Assembly: GCA_033580375.1 (NCBI GenBank)
Contig: GCA_033580375.1_4527.1
Length of the DNA stretch: 64,000 bases
Origin: a phage
Strand: one strand, 5' to 3'
In this document: positions 2,597-52,944 of the stretch, one piece after another
How the letters are laid out: each line of letters begins with the position of its first letter
Numbering within the stretch: the first letter of the stretch is position 1
Program-made: the position numbers and the translations under genes
The notes under the pieces: generated by a model
What the model saw: only the letters and a program-made list of their open reading frames with translations
The model's database searches: none
What the model was told of the DNA's origin: nothing

Positions 2597-2833
2597 TTAA
2601 CCACTTACTGGTGTAGGGGTAAACATTGTAGCGTTCTTAGTACGCCAATCTTCTGCGCTTGACACTACCGTAGTGTAAGCAGCTTTTTCAGATGGGAAAG
2701 TCTGATAATGAGCATCAGCAATTCGGTGCTCATTTGAGTAAATCTCAAACGGAACCGAAACTTCCATACCTTTAACTTCTTTGCCTTCACCAGCAGGATG
2801 CGTAAAGGTTTTGATGTTTACATAACCACCCAT
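2597..2833 (-). CDS. soc: small outer capsid protein Soc
   Basis: 78 aa; GYVNIKTF...AHYQTFPSEKAAY matches T4 Soc as I recall it. Confidence 0.8.
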   Translation of the reverse strand: MGGYVNIKTFTHPAGEGKEVKGMEVSVPFEIYSNEHRIADAHYQTFPSEKAAYTTVVSSAEDWRTKNATMFTPTPVSG

Positions 2834-2878: not shown

Positions 2879-3400
2879 TTAGTACCCATTATCCTGACGT
2901 TCAAAGTTGTGTTGGTTTTTCAAGTAGTAAAGTTTAAAGATTTCTTCAGCCGAAAGACCTAGACCCTGGAACATATTTAGAACGAAATGCAGAATATCAA
3001 TCATTTCAAATTTAATTTCAAGTTGGTCTTCAGGAGACAGTTCATCGATACGACGATTTCGATATTCAGCATGTTGTGCTTTCCAAGGCTTCCATACACT
3101 GCTGGCAGCTTTTTCACCATTGCTCATACCACCAAGTGAAGTCAGCAGTTCACGGAATTCATCATCAATATAATCTTTCTGATTACGCAGCCAATCAACA
3201 ACATCGCCAGCAGTGACCAATTCATCAGGATGTTTGTTATGTTCAGGCTTGTCATTTGCCAGACGAACCTGTAAAGATTTCTGCATATCAAGCATTACCT
3301 GCAGTGGGTCTTTATCTTCGTGAATCAGAGCATTAAAATAAGCTTCTTCTGCTTTATCAACACCAGAAATAAGTTGTGAACATTCATTAAAGTGTGCCAT
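2879..3400 (-). CDS. 56: dCTP pyrophosphatase (dCTPase/dUTPase) gp56
   Basis: MAHFNEC...DPLQVMLDMQ...DDEFRELLTSLG...KFE..DI.HFVLNMF..LG..AEEIFKLYYLKN matches T4 gp56; start set at ATG 3400 (173 aa). Confidence 0.85.
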   Translation of the reverse strand: MAHFNECSQLISGVDKAEEAYFNALIHEDKDPLQVMLDMQKSLQVRLANDKPEHNKHPDELVTAGDVVDWLRNQKDYIDDEFRELLTSLGGMSNGEKAASSVWKPWKAQHAEYRNRRIDELSPEDQLEIKFEMIDILHFVLNMFQGLGLSAEEIFKLYYLKNQHNFERQDNGY

Positions 3401-3489
3401 TATTTTTCCTTTCAATTCAGTATAAGAGAGTTAATTCTAACATTAATTTTATAAAGCGTAATAAATAATAAGGTAACTAAGGAGATATT

Positions 3490-3687
3490 ATGTTTAAACT
3501 TCCATCGTTAATCAATGCTATTAAAGGCAATAAAAAGAAAACTGCTATCGCTGCAATAGTTGTAGGTGGCATTATTTCATGGAACTTCGGTATCGCACCG
3601 GTGTTAGTTGCTAATGGTATTATAGTTCCTTCTGTTCCGTTGGATACTGTTGTTGACCTAGCTTTTGCTGTTATAGGGCTAGTCTAA
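3490..3687 (+). CDS. small hydrophobic (membrane) protein, plus strand
   Basis: 65 aa, strong SD AAGGAG 8 nt upstream of ATG, two predicted TM segments; late-promoter-like ATAAATA upstream. Confidence 0.5.
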   Translation: MFKLPSLINAIKGNKKKTAIAAIVVGGIISWNFGIAPVLVANGIIVPSVPLDTVVDLAFAVIGLV

Positions 3688-4718
3688 ATTTTAGAATACC
3701 GAGATAATCTCATTTTAGCATGCAACCCACTTGAAATATTCTGTTTCATATATTCTAAAATTTCTTGTGGTGTTGCATTTTCTTTCATTACCATATCATT
3801 CACATCCTTTGATCTCCATGGAGCTCTATCCCAGAACATGACACGTTCGCCTGCATCAACTAATCGCTTCATACGAGCTATAGTATCCGGATGCCTAGGT
3901 TCATTATCCATTACCCATACCCGACGTTCTTTAAATGGTACCACATCTAAATCTATTGAGCCGCCTGTAATAGCGATTGCATTAGGTATGAATAAACTAT
4001 CAATAGGGCCTTCCATTACCCAGACGTCTCCTTCCTTAACACGTTCAACACCATAAATTTTTGTTGCGGACTCAAAAGCTTTAATAGTGATATATTTTTG
4101 AGGAGCATCTTTGCGAAGTGCACGTCCTTGAAATGACTCGGCCTTCCCGTCTTTATTAAAAATAGGAATCACTAAACGCGGTTCGGGAATCTCTTTCTTA
4201 TACGTACCAGGTTGAATCTTGTTGACCAATTTAGGCCATTCTAATGTGAACCATAATCTGTTCCACGATTCTTTAGGAATACACCGAGACTTAACATATT
4301 TCACAATAGGATGCTCTTCAGGCAACTTGTCCAGACGAGAACAAGACGGCAAAGAATTTATAGTCTTTTTCTCCGGTTCTGGTTTATGTTCAGGAACCTT
4401 TTCGATCTTTGGTTCCATTCTAGCTTTTTCTTTACGAACTTCCATTAGATATTCGCGATAAAGCTCTTCGTCATACTCTTTTAAGTATCCAGAAATCGTA
4501 TTATGATATTGGCAGTTATAGCAATGCACATTACCTGGAGTACCGCCATAATACCATCCGCGGGCTTTCATTGCATCTGTCTGAGAGTCGCCACAAACTG
4601 GACAACGAAACGTTAATTTAAATGTGCTTGAATTATTGATTTGTCTAAAACGAGGTAGGTGAGAAAACGCACGATAAGCAAATTCATTATCTATCCATTC
4701 AGCCATAGTATTCTCCAA
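3684..4718 (-). CDS. 61: DNA primase gp61
   Basis: WIDNEFAYRA...NNSSTFKL.FRCPVCGDS..D..KARGWYYG zinc-ribbon N-terminus matches T4 gp61. Confidence 0.9.
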   Translation of the reverse strand: MENTMAEWIDNEFAYRAFSHLPRFRQINNSSTFKLTFRCPVCGDSQTDAMKARGWYYGGTPGNVHCYNCQYHNTISGYLKEYDEELYREYLMEVRKEKARMEPKIEKVPEHKPEPEKKTINSLPSCSRLDKLPEEHPIVKYVKSRCIPKESWNRLWFTLEWPKLVNKIQPGTYKKEIPEPRLVIPIFNKDGKAESFQGRALRKDAPQKYITIKAFESATKIYGVERVKEGDVWVMEGPIDSLFIPNAIAITGGSIDLDVVPFKERRVWVMDNEPRHPDTIARMKRLVDAGERVMFWDRAPWRSKDVNDMVMKENATPQEILEYMKQNISSGLHAKMRLSRYSKI

Positions 4719-4745
4719 AGGCCTTAAATTAATAAGGCCATCATA

Positions 4746-5240
4746 TCACAACTTATTGATATTTACTTTAATTCGCTTTCTTTTCTTGTAAGGAATTTGT
4801 TCTGGACCTTTATTTACGACTGCACCTGTAGTTGTTCCTGATGCAATAGCTTGAGGGCTGCCACCTGAATCACCGGCCACCATATCCTCAAATAAAGGGA
4901 GTTCTTTAAATATTTCTTTCTGTTGTTCTTCAGTAATGTTATAGCGTGAAGCTACAGCACTCCAAGCAGACATCATTGAGGCCATTCCATTAAGACCCGG
5001 AACAGTGCTCATCATTCGCTTCATTGAACGAACTGAAGCATGAAAAGGTGTATAAGCCGCTTTCTCTTCAGGAGTAGAAGGACGTTTAAGAACACTTCCA
5101 CGTTCGTCGATTATTTTGGCTTCGTACGCTTTCCATTCTGTAAAAGGTTTTTGCATTAGTCGAATAAACTTATATGCATAAACTGAATCTATTGCAGTGT
5201 TAATAATACCCATAGGTACCTCCTGAGTATATTTAATCAA
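4746..5240 (-). CDS. hypothetical protein
   Basis: 164-aa ORF between primase and helicase genes. Confidence 0.5.
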   Translation of the reverse strand: MIKYTQEVPMGIINTAIDSVYAYKFIRLMQKPFTEWKAYEAKIIDERGSVLKRPSTPEEKAAYTPFHASVRSMKRMMSTVPGLNGMASMMSAWSAVASRYNITEEQQKEIFKELPLFEDMVAGDSGGSPQAIASGTTTGAVVNKGPEQIPYKKRKRIKVNINKL

Positions 5241-5430
5241 TCACAAAGATCGCTTTATCGCCGTTCGCATCTGTGACTTCATATGTAGTGTCTTCATAGT
5301 GTGGAATATTCCAAATTACACCATCATTAGCTTTTACGCTAATATGACATTGGTGTTTTGAAACAACTTCATAATCTTCAAAACTTGTAAAAACACTAAT
5401 TTTAGAACCAGTGCAAATTGCAGTAGTCAT
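5233..5430 (-). CDS. hypothetical protein
   Basis: 65-aa ORF, tightly packed with neighbours. Confidence 0.4.
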   Translation of the reverse strand: MTTAICTGSKISVFTSFEDYEVVSKHQCHISVKANDGVIWNIPHYEDTTYEVTDANGDKAIFVID

Positions 5431-5431
5431 T

Positions 5432-6091
5432 TTAACCTCGATTCATAAATGCATTAAATATTTGGTCATCAACAGAAATTTCTAATTCGACTTCAATTGC
5501 TTCAGCCTTTTCTTCAGGTGGTAATTCGTATCCACACACTACAATTTTTTCATCGATATCAAAATATACAGAAGCAATATGATTAATGTTATTTTCAGTT
5601 AAGTCTAAATCAACATCAACATCTTTTTGACCTACACTTAAAGGATAACTAATACGGGTTATTTTATTATCTTTAACAAAGAGTCCACCAACATACTCTG
5701 TACTACGTTTGAAGTTTACACGTTTCCGAATTGAAAGATATGATGCATCTTTACCGTGGGCTCGGCTCATAGGACATAATGAATAACTAGAATAAGAGAT
5801 ATCAAATCCTACGCCTTCAACATGTGCCAGAGTATCATGAGTAAACCAATTATAGTCGTATGCCAAATCCATTAAATTATAATATGTGAATGGAACCGGA
5901 TTAACGTCATACGTTGTACCTTTAAAATCTGCCCAGGCAACGATTTCGTTATCTTTAACAATTACAAAAATTACACCAATATGGTATCCGTTATTATTTT
6001 CATTCGGCGTTATATTATAACATTGTGCATTAGGAAATTTACCATATTTAAATGGCGCGTTTTTGTGCATATAATAAATCATATTATTCAC
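5432..6091 (-). CDS. hypothetical protein
   Basis: 219-aa ORF, no recognisable motif. Confidence 0.5.
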   Translation of the reverse strand: MNNMIYYMHKNAPFKYGKFPNAQCYNITPNENNNGYHIGVIFVIVKDNEIVAWADFKGTTYDVNPVPFTYYNLMDLAYDYNWFTHDTLAHVEGVGFDISYSSYSLCPMSRAHGKDASYLSIRKRVNFKRSTEYVGGLFVKDNKITRISYPLSVGQKDVDVDLDLTENNINHIASVYFDIDEKIVVCGYELPPEEKAEAIEVELEISVDDQIFNAFMNRG

Positions 6092-6377
6092 CTGTGATTT
6101 CGGTTACGATATCTTTGTTATCGAAATTAGGGTCACAATACAAAACATAGTTGTACTGCATGATACCGCCAGACTTAAGTTGTTCAACAACTTTATTAAC
6201 CATATTAGGACGGTCTCGTTTAGTGATGTTCATGATATCAGAGAAGATTTGTTGTTCAACATCTTCTTGATTTGCAGTCATTGACCACTCACAGAGGTCT
6301 TTATCATAACCTGCTGTAACTGGAGCTGGTGCACATGATACTGCAAGTAAGATTGCTGCCAATGATAACTTTTTCAT
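6084..6377 (-). CDS. sp: Spackle periplasmic protein (superinfection exclusion)
   Basis: 97 aa with signal peptide; AGYDKDLCEWSMTA...DIMNI.KRDRP...QLKSGG.MQYNYVLYCD.NF.NK matches T4 Sp. Confidence 0.8.
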   Translation of the reverse strand: MKKLSLAAILLAVSCAPAPVTAGYDKDLCEWSMTANQEDVEQQIFSDIMNITKRDRPNMVNKVVEQLKSGGIMQYNYVLYCDPNFDNKDIVTEITGE

Positions 6378-6394
6378 TTTAACTCCTTAGTTGA

Positions 6395-6436
6395 TTTGAT
6401 AGGACTACTATACTATAGTCCATCTATAATGTAAAC
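6395..6436 (-). promoter_or_regulatory. T4-type early promoter (GTTTAC -35, TATAGT -10) with inverted repeat
   Basis: minus-strand GTTTAC...TATAGT upstream of sp; ggacta/tagtcc inverted repeat around the -10. Confidence 0.5.
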
Positions 6437-6440
6437 AAGT

Positions 6441-6689
6441 TTATTCTTTTTCGCGAATAATAATTACTTGTTGAGGCTGCTGAGCAGATTTCTTTTCGGC
6501 AACGATAGACCAAATTAAAGTTCCAATCCAACCAACCATCGTCCAGTTAAAGAGCAAAGATACAAAGAAGATTGCTGTTGTGCTTTTTGTGCCACGAATA
6601 AGTGCGATTACCCAAGGCAACATGTAAATGATGATTGAACCAATACCTGCGATTAAAACTGCTACTGAACTAGCTACGAATAATTCCAT
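6441..6689 (-). CDS. small inner-membrane protein
   Basis: 82 aa, two long hydrophobic segments. Confidence 0.5.
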   Translation of the reverse strand: MELFVASSVAVLIAGIGSIIIYMLPWVIALIRGTKSTTAIFFVSLLFNWTMVGWIGTLIWSIVAEKKSAQQPQQVIIIREKE

Positions 6690-6750: not shown

Positions 6751-7119
6751 TTAATTAAATTTGTTTAAACGTTCAATACACTGGACGTAGTTATTCGCGA
6801 TTTGTTTCTGGGTAGGCTCTTTACCAGTTGTTTCAACATAGCGAATGAATGCGATTTCAGTAGCCTGTAGACAATGTTCTTTAACGCGTTGTTCTTTTGT
6901 CAATGCTACAGTATCAGAGTCACGATAACGTTGAGCATGGGCATCGGCTTGAATCATTCGATTACCTACAGTAACCGGGTCTTCCACTTCAACTTTAGGT
7001 TGGTTGTACTGTTTAACATTCGGGTTATAAATCAATTGGCCAACATTATTAGGGATAAAGCCATGAGCACCACATCCAGTTAATCCGAATACCATTGCTA
7101 AAGCTATTAATTTTTTCAT
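6751..7119 (-). CDS. predicted lipoprotein
   Basis: 122 aa; signal peptide with lipobox LTGC. Confidence 0.5.
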   Translation of the reverse strand: MKKLIALAMVFGLTGCGAHGFIPNNVGQLIYNPNVKQYNQPKVEVEDPVTVGNRMIQADAHAQRYRDSDTVALTKEQRVKEHCLQATEIAFIRYVETTGKEPTQKQIANNYVQCIERLNKFN

Positions 7120-8211: not shown

Positions 8212-9654
8212 TTAAAATTTTAACTCATTGGCTAAGCTATCTAGGTCAGCCCGTGTTGCCTTGGCTTTACCTACGCGTTCCGTGCGATTCACCTCTGCCT
8301 GACGCATCTGAGCACCTGCGTTTTCATTTACCGTGTTAGGTGTGTTCATGCCTTCTTGCTCAATCTCAACCCATTTCTGATTGCCTTTACGTACACCCAT
8401 CAAGAACTTGTTCCACTTATTCTTATCACCATATCGTGATTTGATTTGTTTGATAAGTTGTTGTTCAGCTTGTGCAAGTTCTTCGGTTTCAATTACGGCC
8501 AACATGAAATCTGCTGTCGCCGGTAAACCTGCTGATTCTGCAATATCACTCATGTTCATGTCTGAAGCATCCCATGCTGCACGTCCTACTTGAGCTGCAG
8601 TCCATAGAACTGTTTCAGATTCTACTGCTAATGCACGAAGTTCTTCTGCGATAGCTTTAACTAATGTGTAACTATTTTCAGTGTAAACTCTGATACGACA
8701 AGACCCACAAATACCTAAGTAATCGACTATAATTACAGACGGCACAAAGTTCTTCTTAAGTTTCAATTCATTAAGCAATGCACGGAATGTATTAGCATTA
8801 GCTCCACCAGTAGGATACTGTTTAACTACTAAACGTCCTAATGTTGATTTTGAACGCCATTTTTCCATCTTGGCTTTATATTCAGCATAAGATACGTTAC
8901 CATCATCGATATCATCGAGTGATACGTCAAGCATGTTTGCATCTATACGCTTAGCACAAACTTCTTCAGCCATTTCCATGGAAATATAAAGAACATTATG
9001 TCCTGTTTGAAGATAATCTGCAGCAAGTGAACAAAGGCCTAAAGATTTACCAACGTTAACACCAGCCATTAAAACGTTTAGTGTACCTGTTTCTGCACCA
9101 CCTTTAGTGATTTTATTCAGAATGTTTAATTTGAACGGGACCTTACGTGCTTTATTTAGATAAGAAAGCCAGCGTGATTCGTAGTCTTCCATCCAGTCAT
9201 GACCAACATAACTATCAAACGAAATTGAAAGTGCTTGACGCATAATATCAGGAATAGCTCCTACGTCAGGCATTTTCTTGTTACGTTGTTCTGGAGGTAG
9301 TTCGGCATTAGTCTGAATCTCAATGATTTTGGACGTGGCATTATACATCGCTTTTTGCTGGACATATTTCTCAGTTTCTTTAACCAACCATTCGTGGTCT
9401 TCAGGAGTATCAGCCAATTTTTCAATTAGGTCTGAAGTTCCTTTATATTCGGCTTCAGTTAAAGAACTGTTATCTAAAGCCACCTTTAATGCATTGATAG
9501 ATGGCATTGCATTATATTCGTTAACGTGGCTCTTTATAATTTTAAAGACATTTTTTGCCGGTCCACGCTCAAAATACTCAGAATCCATATAAGGCCAGAC
9601 CTTAGAAAAATAAGCCTGGTCGTATACGAGATGAGACAAAATAATTTCTACCAC
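8212..9654 (-). CDS. 41: replicative DNA helicase gp41 (DnaB-like)
   Basis: 480 aa; Walker A GVNVGKS, DnaB-family layout, matches T4 gp41. Confidence 0.9.
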   Translation of the reverse strand: MVEIILSHLVYDQAYFSKVWPYMDSEYFERGPAKNVFKIIKSHVNEYNAMPSINALKVALDNSSLTEAEYKGTSDLIEKLADTPEDHEWLVKETEKYVQQKAMYNATSKIIEIQTNAELPPEQRNKKMPDVGAIPDIMRQALSISFDSYVGHDWMEDYESRWLSYLNKARKVPFKLNILNKITKGGAETGTLNVLMAGVNVGKSLGLCSLAADYLQTGHNVLYISMEMAEEVCAKRIDANMLDVSLDDIDDGNVSYAEYKAKMEKWRSKSTLGRLVVKQYPTGGANANTFRALLNELKLKKNFVPSVIIVDYLGICGSCRIRVYTENSYTLVKAIAEELRALAVESETVLWTAAQVGRAAWDASDMNMSDIAESAGLPATADFMLAVIETEELAQAEQQLIKQIKSRYGDKNKWNKFLMGVRKGNQKWVEIEQEGMNTPNTVNENAGAQMRQAEVNRTERVGKAKATRADLDSLANELKF

Positions 9655-9663
9655 GATAACTCC

Positions 9664-10026
9664 TTAAAAGAATTTAAATTTTTTCTTGGTTCGTTCATTA
9701 AAAGCTTGTTGTACCTGCATTGTAACACATTTTTCAACATGCGGCGCAAGTTCTGCTTTTCTGTCCTGGTCAAGAACTGCAAAGTCCATTACGATTTTAC
9801 CATCAACCCAGTCTAGTTTTGTAATATAGACTATATGATGAGAACCGTCTTCAAGTGTAATCAGAATCTCTTGAATGACGTTTTCCATTGCTGAACGGAT
9901 AATTTTAAGAGATTCATTAAACACTCGTTCTTTGCGAATGTCTTCCCCTTCCGAAGAAGGGGATTCATCAACGATTTCTAGATTTAAATCATCGAGATTA
10001 TTCATCGAAATCTTCCATTTCGTCAA
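9664..10026 (-). CDS. 40: gp40-like protein (head vertex assembly chaperone)
   Basis: 120-aa ORF in the conserved 41-40-uvsX position; call by synteny only. Confidence 0.45.
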   Translation of the reverse strand: MTKWKISMNNLDDLNLEIVDESPSSEGEDIRKERVFNESLKIIRSAMENVIQEILITLEDGSHHIVYITKLDWVDGKIVMDFAVLDQDRKAELAPHVEKCVTMQVQQAFNERTKKKFKFF

Positions 10027-11170
10027 GGTCGTTTTCTATATCTGCTGCAGATGGAGCATCAGAAGTTTTAACCGGAACTTTAGTTGTTGCTTTGCAATTA
10101 ATAAGGTCGTTAACTGCGTCATCAACTTCTTTAATAGAAGAGATAGCGCCTAGTTTATATTTAGTTTCAATTGCATCTCGGAAAGGTTTGTGTTTAAACA
10201 ACGGTCCCCAGAATTCTACGCAATCAGTAGCTTTAGCACGCCATGATTTCTCTTCACGAATCATTTCACCTGTTTCTTCGTCAAGGAATTCACGAGCATA
10301 CCAACCGGCTTTAGGTTTAACCACAAAACCAATTTCAGTTGCCATTTCTAACAAGCCACTGAATGGGTCAATACCGCCATCAAAATTAACCGTGATCGGG
10401 AAAGTAGATTTCTCTTTAACAGTACGAGATTTTTCTGCTTTCAACGTGAAGTCATAACCGGTCAATTCTGTACCTTCTTTAACCTGACGTTTAGAGATAA
10501 AGAATACAGTGTTAGCAGAGTAAAGAATACCTGTACCACCACCCATAATCTCTTTAGGATATAGTCCACCGATTTCCATTGCTGTATGGTTAATTGCAAC
10601 ACATGGAATATCTTTAATAGTCAGATACGGGGTCACAATACGGAACAGAGATTTAAGTGCCTTAGCACGAGACATATCACCTACGACTTTCTCGTTCAAT
10701 GCATCTTCGGTTTCTTTCTTAGATGCAGTATTACCGATTGAATCGATAAAGATAATAACTTTATCACCGCGTTCAATAGCGTCAAGCTGATTAGTCATAT
10801 CAACTTTAAGTTGTTCGACGGACTGAATTGGTGTGTGAACTACACGGTCTAAATCAACACCCATTGAACGAAAATAAGATTCTGAAGCACCGAATTCTGA
10901 ATCATAGAACAAACAAATTGCATCTTTATATTTCTTCATATACGCTGCAACCATGGTCAGCCCAAACAATGTTTTAAAATGTTTAGAAGGTGCAGCAAAA
11001 ATAGTCAAGCCTGATTGCAATCCTGCATTCAGAGCACCACCTAGTGCAATATTCAACATCGGAATACGAGTAGGGACTTCATCGCGATTATTAAACAGCT
11101 TAGACTTAGTCAAGTCTGCAGTCATTTTAGAAGTAGAAGCTTTAATCAGACGAGATTTTAAATCAGACAT
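9998..11170 (-). CDS. uvsX: recombinase UvsX (RecA-like)
   Basis: MSDLKSRLIKASTSK...RIPMLNIALGG...NHT...WYAREFLDEETGEMIREEKSWRAK nearly co-linear with T4 UvsX. Confidence 0.9.
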   Translation of the reverse strand: MSDLKSRLIKASTSKMTADLTKSKLFNNRDEVPTRIPMLNIALGGALNAGLQSGLTIFAAPSKHFKTLFGLTMVAAYMKKYKDAICLFYDSEFGASESYFRSMGVDLDRVVHTPIQSVEQLKVDMTNQLDAIERGDKVIIFIDSIGNTASKKETEDALNEKVVGDMSRAKALKSLFRIVTPYLTIKDIPCVAINHTAMEIGGLYPKEIMGGGTGILYSANTVFFISKRQVKEGTELTGYDFTLKAEKSRTVKEKSTFPITVNFDGGIDPFSGLLEMATEIGFVVKPKAGWYAREFLDEETGEMIREEKSWRAKATDCVEFWGPLFKHKPFRDAIETKYKLGAISSIKEVDDAVNDLINCKATTKVPVKTSDAPSAADIENDLDEMEDFDE

Positions 11171-11269
11171 TGTATTTTTCCATAGGCATCATTATATTTT
11201 ACTCATGTTTAAAAGATAAGATGATTATATACTAATGATTATACAGCATTTAAAACTTTAAACAGGCTC

Positions 11270-34768: not shown

Positions 34769-34807
34769 GATAAACCCTTACCTTAAATAGATAAGGGTAT
34801 TTATAAT

Positions 34808-45126: not shown

Positions 45127-45153
45127 ATATACCTCTTGGTTAGATATTAGTAT

Positions 45154-45735
45154 TTATAACAACCCTGTCAAATCATTCCAATGCTTCCGGCATAATGACA
45201 CATATCTATCGGTATCACCAATTTCAATTTGTCCACCGTCTGTAATTGGAAGTCCATCTTCCGTGACTCTAGCTACCATAGTGGCCTTTTTACCACAATG
45301 ACAGACACCTTTAAGTTCAACAAGCTTGTCGGCAATAGCCATTAATGCTTGAGAACCTTCAAATAGATTACCTTTAAAATCTGTTCGTAGTCCATATGCC
45401 ATTACTGGCACATTGTATACGTCAACAATACGACTAAGTTGATACACCTTTTCAGTAGTTAAGAACTGAGCTTCGTCAACAAATACACAGTGAATATCCT
45501 TTTGTGCTGCAGCCCATTTATAGAATTCAAAGATATCCATGTCTTTTGTAATTATATTGGCATCCTGACGAATACCAATACGAGAGACTATTTCACCTTT
45601 TGAATCACGAGTATCAATATCCGGTTTAAGAACTAATACACCCATGCCACGTTCTTTATAGTTATGTGCGGCAGTAAGTAATGAAGCAGACTTACCAGCG
45701 TTCATTGCTGCATAAGTAAAAATTAAACTCGCCAT
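45154..45735 (-). CDS. tk: thymidine kinase
   Basis: 193 aa; YAAMNAGKS Walker A, VDEAQF, C-terminal CxCG...C zinc motif; same length as T4 Tk. Confidence 0.9.
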   Translation of the reverse strand: MASLIFTYAAMNAGKSASLLTAAHNYKERGMGVLVLKPDIDTRDSKGEIVSRIGIRQDANIITKDMDIFEFYKWAAAQKDIHCVFVDEAQFLTTEKVYQLSRIVDVYNVPVMAYGLRTDFKGNLFEGSQALMAIADKLVELKGVCHCGKKATMVARVTEDGLPITDGGQIEIGDTDRYVSLCRKHWNDLTGLL

Positions 45736-48906: not shown

Positions 48907-49268
48907 TATAGACTCTCAGTAAAGGTACGAGCGATAACGTCGCGCTGCTGTTCTGGAGTCAGAGAGTTAAAGCGAACTGCATAACCGGATACACGAATGG
49001 TCAGCTGAGGATATTTTTCCGGATGCTTAACTGCATCTTCCAGAGTTTCACGACGCAGAACGTTAACGTTCAGATGTTGACCACCTTCAATTTTAACTTT
49101 AGGTTGATGTTCAATTTCAATTTCACGGGCATTCAAACCGTAGAAAATTTCAGGGTCTACAATAGCGTCTTCTTTAAAAGTCTTAGAGACAATAATCCGG
49201 GCTTGAGTACCGTCTTCAAAATAAATAGTGCCTTTATGTGCACCTTCAAGAATTTGATATGCTTTCAT
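48906..49268 (-). CDS. autonomous glycyl-radical cofactor, GrcA (YfiD)-like
   Basis: 120 aa; C-terminal [58 protein letters not shown] matches the E. coli GrcA C-terminus as recalled, including the RVSGY glycyl-radical motif. Confidence 0.85.
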
Positions 49269-50452: not shown

Positions 50453-50755
50453 TTATTTACCTTTAATTACTTTAGCTGCTTCGATAGCCGCTTGCTGAAG
50501 GTCATCCATAGACATACCGAATTTAGAAGCAAAGTTATCAATTTTCTTTTCGACAGCATTCAAAGGCTTGGCCTGTTTACCTTCATTAGCGCCAGGAAGA
50601 GCGAGAATACGCTCTTTGTCAATATAAAGGCTTACAAGTTTCTTACGGTCTTTATCGGACAAATCATGAAATGAATGGGCCTTTTTATTTATAGCGGCTT
50701 CTAATTTACCTGCACTCACTCGAGCTTCAGTAATAAATTCTTGATATGTTTTCAT
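50453..50755 (-). CDS. ipII: internal protein IPII-like (capsid-targeting N-terminus)
   Basis: 100 aa; N-terminal MKTYQEFITEA matches the T4 internal-protein targeting sequence cleaved by the prohead protease. Confidence 0.65.
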   Translation of the reverse strand: MKTYQEFITEARVSAGKLEAAINKKAHSFHDLSDKDRKKLVSLYIDKERILALPGANEGKQAKPLNAVEKKIDNFASKFGMSMDDLQQAAIEAAKVIKGK

Positions 50756-52459: not shown

Positions 52460-52944
52460 ATATACGCTTTCCAAGTTCCTGTTTTAAATGTTGAGATTAC
52501 GCGTTTCGCGCGATTAGGTGTCTGACGATACCATTTAGATTGGGCGAGATTTACTGCCGCTTCATCCCAACGTTTCTGTTGAAGCATACGAAGAGAATTA
52601 GTAAAACCAGCAACGCCTGCTACACCCATTTGGAAGACCATATTGACCAATGCACATCGACGAACTGCATCTAAAGAATCATATACCGGTTTAAGTTTAG
52701 CATTACCCAAGATTCCGCGAACGGCTTTATCAACATCTTCATTAAATAGCTTTTCAGCCTCATCAAGGGTAATTGTACCGTTGCATTTACGACCGATCAT
52801 TCTATCAAGTTCAGCTTTAGCTACGGCTAAAGACGGGTTCTTTGTTACCAAATGGCCTATGCCAATAGTCCAAAAGCCTTCGGTGTCTTTGTATAAAGAC
52901 AGTCTAAGACCTTCGTCATTACGAAGCATTTCAAATATATTCAT
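52456..52944 (-). CDS. e: lysozyme (endolysin) e
   Basis: [37 protein letters not shown]...[50 protein letters not shown] near-identical to T4 lysozyme. Confidence 0.9.

Follow-up and report, generated by a model that had tools for sequence, protein, structure and literature searches.

A small plus-strand gene convergent with primase gene 61 of T4-like phages: a predicted membrane protein of possible holin-family descent

The subject of this analysis is a small gene in a 64-kb stretch of the genome of a Mosigvirus (RB69-like T-even phage); this whole stretch is referred to below as the window. Between 2800 and 4800 the window shares 97.7% identity with phage phiE142 and ~97% with many RB69-like phages. 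The gene encodes a protein of 65 residues and lies on the plus strand between genes 56 and 61. Gene 56 is its divergent neighbour upstream, and downstream it converges with the DNA primase gene 61. The locus is organised as follows.

3490..3687, plus strand: coding sequence of the 65-residue protein, 65 codons with an ATG start and a TAA stop (open reading frame (ORF) list, phrog_2024 match, selection, codon score)
3479..3484, plus strand: Shine-Dalgarno site AAGGAG, 5-nt spacer to the ATG (sequence)
3684..4718, minus strand: gene 61, DNA primase, TAG stop (phrog_47, E 8e-102; annotation of relatives)
2879..3400, minus strand: gene 56, dCTPase, ATG at 3400 (or start at 3415) (phrog_173, E 1.6e-45; a 522-nt gene in relatives)
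3684..3687, both strands: 4-base overlap of the convergent stops, TAA of the 65-residue gene and TAG of gene 61 (sequence)

A preliminary description, made from the letters of the window alone, had pointed out the AAGGAG site and the antiparallel run of the ORF into the 3' end of gene 61. Both are borne out, and an AGGAG/GGAGG site is kept in all lineages.

The ORF at 3490..3687 on the plus strand is a genuine, conserved and syntenic gene under purifying selection. The phrog_2024 profile matches its product with an E-value of 2.2e-26, residues 1-65 aligning with positions 1-65 of the 65 in the profile. A tblastn search finds the protein in 693 phage records, in 686 of which it is full length with the frame intact. 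When the Mosigvirus, Tequatrovirus and Gaprivervirus copies are compared, synonymous sites are saturated (pS ~0.75) and pN is ~0.31; within genera omega is ~0.05-0.4, on few substitutions, with values of ~0.1 in the better-sampled pairs. A codon-usage log-odds score trained on the long minus-strand genes of the window assigns the ORF 0.324 bits per codon, the highest value among 155 plus-strand ORFs of at least 45 codons, and true minus-strand genes score 0.351 +/- 0.094 on the same scale. None of the other plus-strand ORFs in the 64 kb joins a gap in minus-strand coding to a Shine-Dalgarno site. The earlier statement that this is the only convincing plus-strand gene of the window therefore holds, and so does its designation as a membrane-protein gene, the membrane location being predicted from hydropathy and AlphaFold2. 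Rfam and tRNA scans of 3200-4000 and 3000-4200 are empty, so that the region is not accounted for by a known RNA gene.

By sequence and position, the gene is the orthologue of RB69ORF029w, of dam.1 of T4T, of RB32ORF030w (RB14) and of gp16.1 of Salmonella phage S16, all in PHROG 2024, function unknown. The same profile is matched by 17 of 17 diverse family members tested. These proteins have the same length as the 65-residue protein and are homologous to it throughout; identity is 100% to phiE142 gp048 and 52-55% to the T4-type proteins. In T4T, RB69 and S16 the gene occupies the same site, between 61 and either 56 or dam and opposite to them in strand, and has the NATAAATA box (see below; TATTAAATA in S16) and the Shine-Dalgarno site of the family. 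The 4-nt stop overlap with gene 61 is likewise present in T4, RB69, S16 and diverged metagenomic T4-like phages. There is no essential difference between these genes and 3490..3687, and we treat them as the same gene. Tequatroviruses differ in that dam is inserted upstream of it, and Gapriverviruses in that they carry a second, diverged tandem copy (subfamily B). The dam.1-type gene is present in Tequatrovirus, Mosigvirus, Gaprivervirus, Gelderlandvirus and diverged metagenomic T4-like phages. It is convergent with primase gene 61 in all T4-like lineages examined, including those with metagenomic proteins only 25-35% identical. The upstream neighbour is not fixed and may be 56, dam or other small ORFs.

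Two subfamilies can be distinguished: type A (Dam.1 type) and type B, with the N-terminus MGTxFYQIWKL. Type B is found in some Klebsiella T4-like phages and, as the second tandem copy, in Gapriverviruses. There, the A and B copies are ~22% identical and lie at 2501-2698 and 2707-2907 in phage VR25 (L004) and at 1501-1698 and 1707-1907 in a further locus (L006). The second copy is without a late box of its own, and phage 212 (L007) has lost the B copy.

The T4 reference records NC_000866.4 and AF158101.6 leave the 309-bp dam-61 interval unannotated despite the presence of an intact orthologue of 66 codons:

NC_000866.4 17738-17938 (2739-2939 of locus L018) and the same place in AF158101.6, plus strand: T4 orthologue of the 65-residue gene (intact ORF)

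Source names of the T4-type clusters are 'hypothetical' or 'uncharacterized' throughout, except for one UniRef 'Holin' entry, and no paper was retrieved in literature searches on dam.1, RB69ORF029w or RB32ORF030w. Two functional labels in GenBank were discarded as noise of automatic annotation: 'head morphogenesis protein' in a T6 record (AP018814), which also calls gene 56 'ferredoxin' and soc 'terminase', and 'DNA packaging ATPase' in UPEC01. In the same T6 record (L005, ~1492-1509) the first ATG reads ATT, which would move the start to the second methionine (residue 6). Tequatrovirus proteins begin MVQKLM, that is, with two in-frame starts five codons apart and a lysine between them, an arrangement that recalls holin/antiholin pairs made from dual starts. 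The proteins of Mosigvirus and Gaprivervirus have a single methionine.

An AlphaFold2 model of the protein, built with a 30-sequence alignment (pLDDT 86.8), has helices at residues 3-11, 15-41 and 51-61, one of which spans the membrane. The corresponding codons are given here.

3532..3612, plus strand: codons of the single predicted transmembrane (TM) helix, residues 15-41 (27 residues), with the invariant Trp31-Asn32 and Pro37 (AlphaFold2, hydropathy, insertion energy)
3640..3672, plus strand: codons of the C-terminal helix, residues 51-61, acidic-hydrophobic and predicted to be too short for a membrane span (AlphaFold2, insertion energy)

The preliminary description had counted two TM segments, which is not supported: the model and the insertion energies both give one TM helix plus a short C-terminal helix. 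Summed insertion energies of the C-terminal 19-residue windows are unfavourable, at +6 to +12 kcal/mol on the crude position-independent Hessa scale, and the hydrophobic segment in this region is of ~12 residues and includes two Asp. The earlier count can be traced to the Kyte-Doolittle values of the C-terminal part, which at 1.3-1.9 (max 1.94) straddle the usual cut-off of 1.6. The C-terminal segment might still form a re-entrant or hairpin arrangement. Residues 1-18 hold five Lys/Arg and no acidic residue, and the remainder two Asp and no basic residue. Together with the AlphaFold2 helices, this charge distribution indicates an N-in, C-out topology with one TM helix.

Among the 30 aligned sequences W31, N32, P37 and G43 are invariant, and P47, V49 and G63 nearly so. 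The core motif W-N-x4-P-x5-G-x3-P-x-V, which is present in the 65-residue protein, runs through the TM helix and beyond it, and the invariant residues are concentrated in the helix's outer half and the loop. This pattern of conservation would be in keeping with association between helices on the periplasmic side. Scans of the 65-residue protein and 17 family members against Pfam, NCBIfam and PADLOC return nothing above noise. Foldseek finds no match in the PDB and, in BFVD, only members of the same family.

The control signals that can be recognised around the gene are the following.

3460..3467, plus strand: late-promoter-like box AATAAATA, 22 nt ahead of the ATG (7 of 8 matches to the T4 consensus TATAAATA, the difference being A at -13)
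3473..3474, plus strand: predicted late transcription start, ~6 nt past the box (from T4 late-promoter geometry, PMC2988020)
3434..3459, minus strand: candidate MotA-type middle promoter of gene 56, acGCTTTA (3459..3452), 12-nt spacer, TAGAAT (3439..3434) (reading of the minus strand)
3720..3786, plus strand: long imperfect hairpin (GCAUGCAACCCAC...GUGGUGUUGCAU) and, after it, a UUUUCUUUC tract, within the 3'-terminal part of gene 61 (z = -1.98 for the fold of 3660-3800)

T4 late promoters have the consensus TATAAATA, spanning -13 to -6 (Geiduschek and Kassavetis 2010, PMC2988020). Among 50 late sites in T4, 32 match it perfectly, and the commonest natural variant, with A at -13, accounts for 9 (PMC2988020). 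The late-promoter-like box of the preliminary description is thus of this variant type, and it is kept across genera as NATAAATA near the start codon. Indeed, in 12 of 13 loci where the gene is the first one, NATAAATA is found 12-33 nt (mostly 15-22) ahead of the ATG, amid diverged flanks. S16 has TATTAAATA in its place. In the window TATAAATA occurs 4 times, against 7.45 +/- 2.67 in shuffled sequences (the deficit is not significant), and AATAAATA 5 times, against 10.78 +/- 3.20. With counts at or below those of the shuffles, these are not abundant chance motifs. We infer, with good support from the conserved box and its spacing, that a gp55-type late promoter drives the gene. The first base of the box in T4-like lineages is A, G or C, never T, which suggests that the promoter may be deliberately weak. 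The T4 GenBank records have no promoter features for the dam-61 region. A T4 dRNA-seq (differential RNA sequencing) study reports 150 phage transcription start sites, 22 of them antisense (bioRxiv 10.1101/2024.04.04.588121).

All four perfect TATAAATA octamers of the window are on the minus strand (2865-2872, 34798-34805, 45151-45158 and 50686-50693). The one at 2865-2872 immediately precedes soc (2597..2833), in line with what a late gene surrounded by early ones should have. On the plus strand there is a second AATAAATA, at 49220-49227.

The positions 3434-3467 make up a compact divergent promoter region, in which the plus-strand AATAAATA abuts the MotA-box-like acGCTTTA of the minus strand. 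The candidate promoter of gene 56 was read against the published middle-promoter consensus. T6-like phages have, in the same place, a perfect TTGCTTTA-N11-TATAAT, and their late box falls inside the spacer of that middle promoter. On the other side of the gene, a consensus terminator scan of 3600-6500 detects no intrinsic terminator on the plus strand within 2.8 kb past the ORF. A late transcript is therefore predicted to run on into gene 61 in antisense, as the preliminary description had supposed. The hairpin at 3720-3786 is at best a weak stop, which might attenuate this antisense transcript.

Relatives of the protein exist outside the T4-like phages, in temperate prophages of enterobacteria. 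An exhaustive profile search yields 17 representatives, some at 20-30% identity, and a scan of IMG/VR gives 20 loci, nearly all on non-T4-like contigs of 16-37 kb. The most distant homologue (P0118) has no match by tblastn in the phage collection. The set used for gene linkage, 23 non-T4 loci, consists of IMG/VR loci and two Logan/ENA contigs. A T4-type lysozyme is encoded at most ~2 kb from the homologue in 21 of these 23 loci, in at least three gene orders. The homologues are 57-99 residues long; most are long forms of 86-99 residues, and a few are of 57-84. The typical module contains a ~90-residue protein with a TM segment and a coiled coil, the lysozyme, a ~190-residue protein, a ~110-residue protein and the Dam.1-like homologue, sometimes with a SegE-type GIY-YIG insert. 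The ~90-residue protein, which is the only other TM protein of the module, has weak Rz-spanin/XhlA-like matches. Neither the ~190- nor the ~110-residue protein has a counterpart in the 64-kb window. The module occupies the prophage end adjoining the tail-tip gene and was found in 32 of 5,426 complete E. coli genomes. Examples are given here by locus.

L036 4130-6225: prophage-end module
L037 3759-6138: prophage-end module
L052 2653-4506: prophage-end module
L063 (E. coli 14EC007) 8841-11229: prophage-end module

In RefSeq every gene of the module is 'hypothetical' bar a glycoside hydrolase, and the one E. coli prophage homologue whose record was checked is also named 'hypothetical'. Directly after the prophage homologue comes variable cargo, such as a RelA/SpoT-domain protein, a 427-residue NTPase-like protein or a 293-residue GTPase-like protein (loci L028 129-1383, L050 6208-8078 and L047 6321-7202), the homologue forming the border of an accessory or defence-like island.

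The long forms (e.g. WP_023328017.1 of E. coli; IMG/VR loci L036-L051) are related to the T4-type proteins with an hhalign probability of 98% and an E-value of 1e-13 (reversed control, P 0.0075). Both have a TM helix with [WY]N and Pro, a loop G..LPP.PL[DE] and a C-terminal helix. The long forms differ in an extra N-terminal amphipathic helix followed by a polar linker with a WRQGLGW motif and, unlike the genes of T4-like phages, lie within 2 kb of a T4-type lysozyme gene at the prophage end adjoining the tail-tip gene. In four loci (L019, L034, L035 and L052) the homologue leads a translationally coupled operon whose last gene encodes a lysozyme. This lysozyme is 55% identical to T4 E and is without a signal-arrest-release (SAR) signal, and no small TM protein other than the homologue is encoded in the operon. 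A soluble lysozyme requires a holin. In prophages, the long-form homologues are probably the holin of the T4-type lysozyme, and on genomic context they are the best holin candidates there. The 55% identity of the L019 lysozyme to T4 E also hints that e and a Dam.1-like gene may once have formed a cassette.

The long forms were further compared with eight phage holins of the PF11351 type, one of them verified at 70.4 bits and adjoining a lysozyme gene and another adjoining an endolysin gene. The hhalign probability is 66% (P 5.6e-5; reversed control, P 0.29). Inspection by eye gives a common motif, WR[PQ]xxGWV...[WY][NQ][FY]xxxPxL...PPxP[LI][DE]...G. In GTA-type 3TM holins (e.g. UOF80177.1, encoded beside a lysozyme gene in podovirus MW202665) the TM helix, loop and C-terminal helix bear a collinear resemblance to those of the family (WRPxxGWV...YQFxxYP...PPxPLD...LG.G). 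These holins also resemble the long forms in having an amphipathic N-terminal helix, and bona fide GTA-type holins and the long forms both adjoin endolysin genes. A few family members make weak contact with 'holin' PHROGs as well. Common ancestry of the family with the 3TM holins is, on these sequence likenesses, plausible but unproven. A 'GTA-like holin' of Pseudanabaena phage Pan1 was dropped as independent support, being itself below threshold for PF11351.

We propose that the 65-residue protein is a late inner-membrane protein of holin-family descent that is accessory or vestigial in lysis and is not the main holin, a reading to which we assign a probability of about one half. The protein would be inserted into the inner membrane by one 27-residue TM helix with the invariant Trp-Asn, its lysine-rich N-terminus facing the cytoplasm and a Pro/Gly-rich loop and short acidic-hydrophobic helix the periplasm. 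Its gene would be transcribed late by gp55-RNA polymerase from the off-consensus AATAAATA, back to back with the gene 56 promoter, and the unterminated transcript would run antisense into primase gene 61. The family would derive from the C-terminal half of GTA-type 3TM holins or have a common ancestor with it. The T-even phages may have kept a shortened form as an accessory or vestigial holin-family protein that modulates lysis timing or hole formation at the membrane in late infection. Since the T-even phages rely on holin T, and T4 t-null mutants do not lyse, an accessory or vestigial role is the most likely one.

A more elaborate version of this proposal holds that the T-even phages, T4 included, possess a cryptic second holin-family protein (Dam.1/ORF029w), overlooked by standard annotation and by all of lysis genetics alike, which, expressed from a deliberately sub-consensus late promoter, tunes the triggering of T or depolarises the membrane, while its transcript silences gene 61 by antisense. 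The protein would then be the survivor of an ancestral 'mini-holin plus E-lysozyme' cassette that is intact in enterobacterial prophages. Taken as a whole, we consider this chain of events distinctly doubtful.

A number of observations weigh against a holin-related interpretation. Loss of t alone blocks T4 lysis, so that the 65-residue protein cannot free lysozyme unaided and is ruled out as the primary holin. The rapid-lysis loci of T4 are rI, rII, rIII, rIV (= sp) and rV (= t) (PMC6832632), and the dam.1-type gene matches none of them; rIV, which maps nearby, was considered for the dam.1-type gene and rejected, since it is sp (PMC6832632). The orthologue of the lysozyme gene e is at ~52462-52938 on the minus strand, 49 kb away, and the 65-residue gene stands beside no endolysin gene in T4-like phages, so that the typical neighbour of a GTA-type holin is missing. 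The lysozyme linkage itself was observed in prophage lineages that are related to one another and may in part be due to shared ancestry of the whole module, including its two soluble proteins of unknown function. The 65-residue protein has no Pfam match at E <= 1, PF11351 included. The best score of a long form against PF11351 (GTA_holin_3TM), 20.6 bits (E 6.6e-4, collinear over ~75 residues), is below the gathering threshold of 24.8 bits, and TM composition can inflate such profile scores. The T4-type proteins, when aligned by hhalign directly with the eight holins, reach a probability of 14% (P 0.002; reversed control, P 0.35). The charged C-terminus typical of holins is also missing, for the protein ends hydrophobic (...DLAFAVIGLV) and its charge cluster is N-terminal.

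The PF11351 architecture (~120-150 residues, with an N-terminal helix, coiled-coil linker, GWRPxxGW, TM helix, loop, C-terminal TM helix and charged tail) is not that of the 65-residue protein. At half the length of a GTA-type holin (~140-150 residues), it is without the ~45-residue coiled-coil linker, the GWRP motif and the charged C-terminal tail. The suggestion in the preliminary description of a holin or antiholin-like protein is accordingly retained in part. It gains from the prophage homologues in lysozyme modules and from the sub-threshold resemblance of the long forms to 3TM holins; it loses from the single TM helix, the lack of a charged tail and the distance of e, and as far as the primary holin is meant it has to be abandoned.

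An alternative is that the protein is a late membrane protein with a job unrelated to lysis, such as superinfection exclusion, interference with a host membrane protein or defence system, or envelope protection. The linkage to lysozyme would then be a by-product of a late or accessory position at the prophage end. The proximity of known exclusion genes in the window is relevant here.

6084..6377, minus strand: sp orthologue (spackle), a separate gene less than 3 kb from the 65-residue gene
6441..6689, minus strand: imm orthologue (superinfection immunity), a separate gene side by side with sp and likewise less than 3 kb away
6751..7119: imm.1

The orthologues of sp, imm and imm.1 are grouped downstream of gene 61 in this phage. 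In T4 imm is located elsewhere, and the clustering of the two exclusion genes would be limited to Mosigvirus. T, RI, RIII, Imm and Sp are like the 65-residue protein in being small envelope-targeted phage proteins of the inner membrane or periplasm. T has a large periplasmic domain, RI a SAR signal and a periplasmic domain, RIII is cytoplasmic, and Imm has two TM helices. The 65-residue protein has no similarity to Imm, Sp, T, RI or RIII, phrog_2024 being its sole family match and Pfam giving none.

In favour of a role outside lysis are this neighbourhood, rich in envelope and exclusion genes, and the place of the prophage homologue as the last prophage gene before cargo or defence-like genes, which is a typical position for a moron. 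The RelA/SpoT-domain gene that follows one homologue, the single TM helix without a charged C-terminal tail, and the lack of correspondence to a rapid-lysis locus point the same way. However, the protein is unlike Imm, Sp and any PADLOC or NCBIfam family. Imm and Sp are products of early genes, as are the known T4 exclusion proteins, whereas the 65-residue gene has a late-type box. Moreover, the co-occurrence with lysozyme survives three gene orders and a protein identity as low as 30-45%, and the collinear sub-threshold similarity to PF11351 would be left unexplained. On balance we regard a job unrelated to lysis as unlikely, though it is the competitor that fares best.

A small membrane-associated morphogenesis or virion-associated factor, acting for instance in membrane-bound prohead initiation, would agree with a late-type promoter and with the position of the gene, close to soc in this phage and to tail genes in prophages. 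One GenBank record indeed says 'head morphogenesis'. However, this is the unreliable automatic label discarded above, the protein resembles no structural family, and a deeply hydrophobic single helix is hardly expected in a capsid component; such a function is highly improbable.

It could also be argued that the locus is mainly a late antisense unit that shuts down primase gene 61 and the early genes upstream of it, the peptide being secondary. The gene is tail-to-tail with gene 61, usually with the 4-nt overlap, in all T4-like lineages, while its upstream neighbour varies; the plus strand has no terminator for 2.8 kb; and T4 DNA has several sites at which transcription is known to use one strand at one time and the other at another (PMC2988020). 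Yet it is the amino acid sequence that is under purifying selection, with invariant residues retained across 15-50% identity, the strong Shine-Dalgarno site is conserved, and the prophage homologues have no primase gene nearby. The linkage is, in addition, broken in some T4-like phages, by an inserted 124-residue gene (L021) or by gaps of 17 nt (L024) and 108 nt (L007). An antisense function as the main purpose of the locus is therefore hardly credible.

That the frame is no gene but a fortuitous ORF in intergenic promoter sequence, as its shortness (65 codons), its AT-richness and its absence from the curated T4 annotation could suggest, is effectively refuted by the comparative data given above (the intact frame in 686 of 693 records, the excess of pS over pN and the low omega on few substitutions, the best codon score of 155, and a motif retained in homologues of 20-30% identity).

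The family is already annotated in relatives, though uncharacterised, and the dam.1-type protein is best filed as a diverged holin-like small membrane protein. What sets it apart is the combination of its absence from the T4 annotation, the rigid convergent coupling to primase, a late box that is consistently off consensus and prophage relatives that are linked to lysozyme. Nearly 700 T4-like phage records carry a gene that the T4 reference annotation does not contain, and omics and genetic screens built on that annotation would therefore not have scored dam.1. If the protein has no role in lysis, it is one more conserved small membrane protein of unknown function. The prophage homologues, for their part, point to an unrecognised holin type that may serve T4-type lysozymes in Enterobacteriaceae.

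Lysis by T4, with T, RI, RIII, E and the spanins, is a textbook system that has been thought complete, and to it would now be added a conserved, probably late membrane protein with holin-family relatives. If the dam.1-type protein modulated the timing or inhibition of lysis, it could be used to engineer the time of lysis in therapeutic T4-like phages, and the model of lysis control in T-even phages would change.

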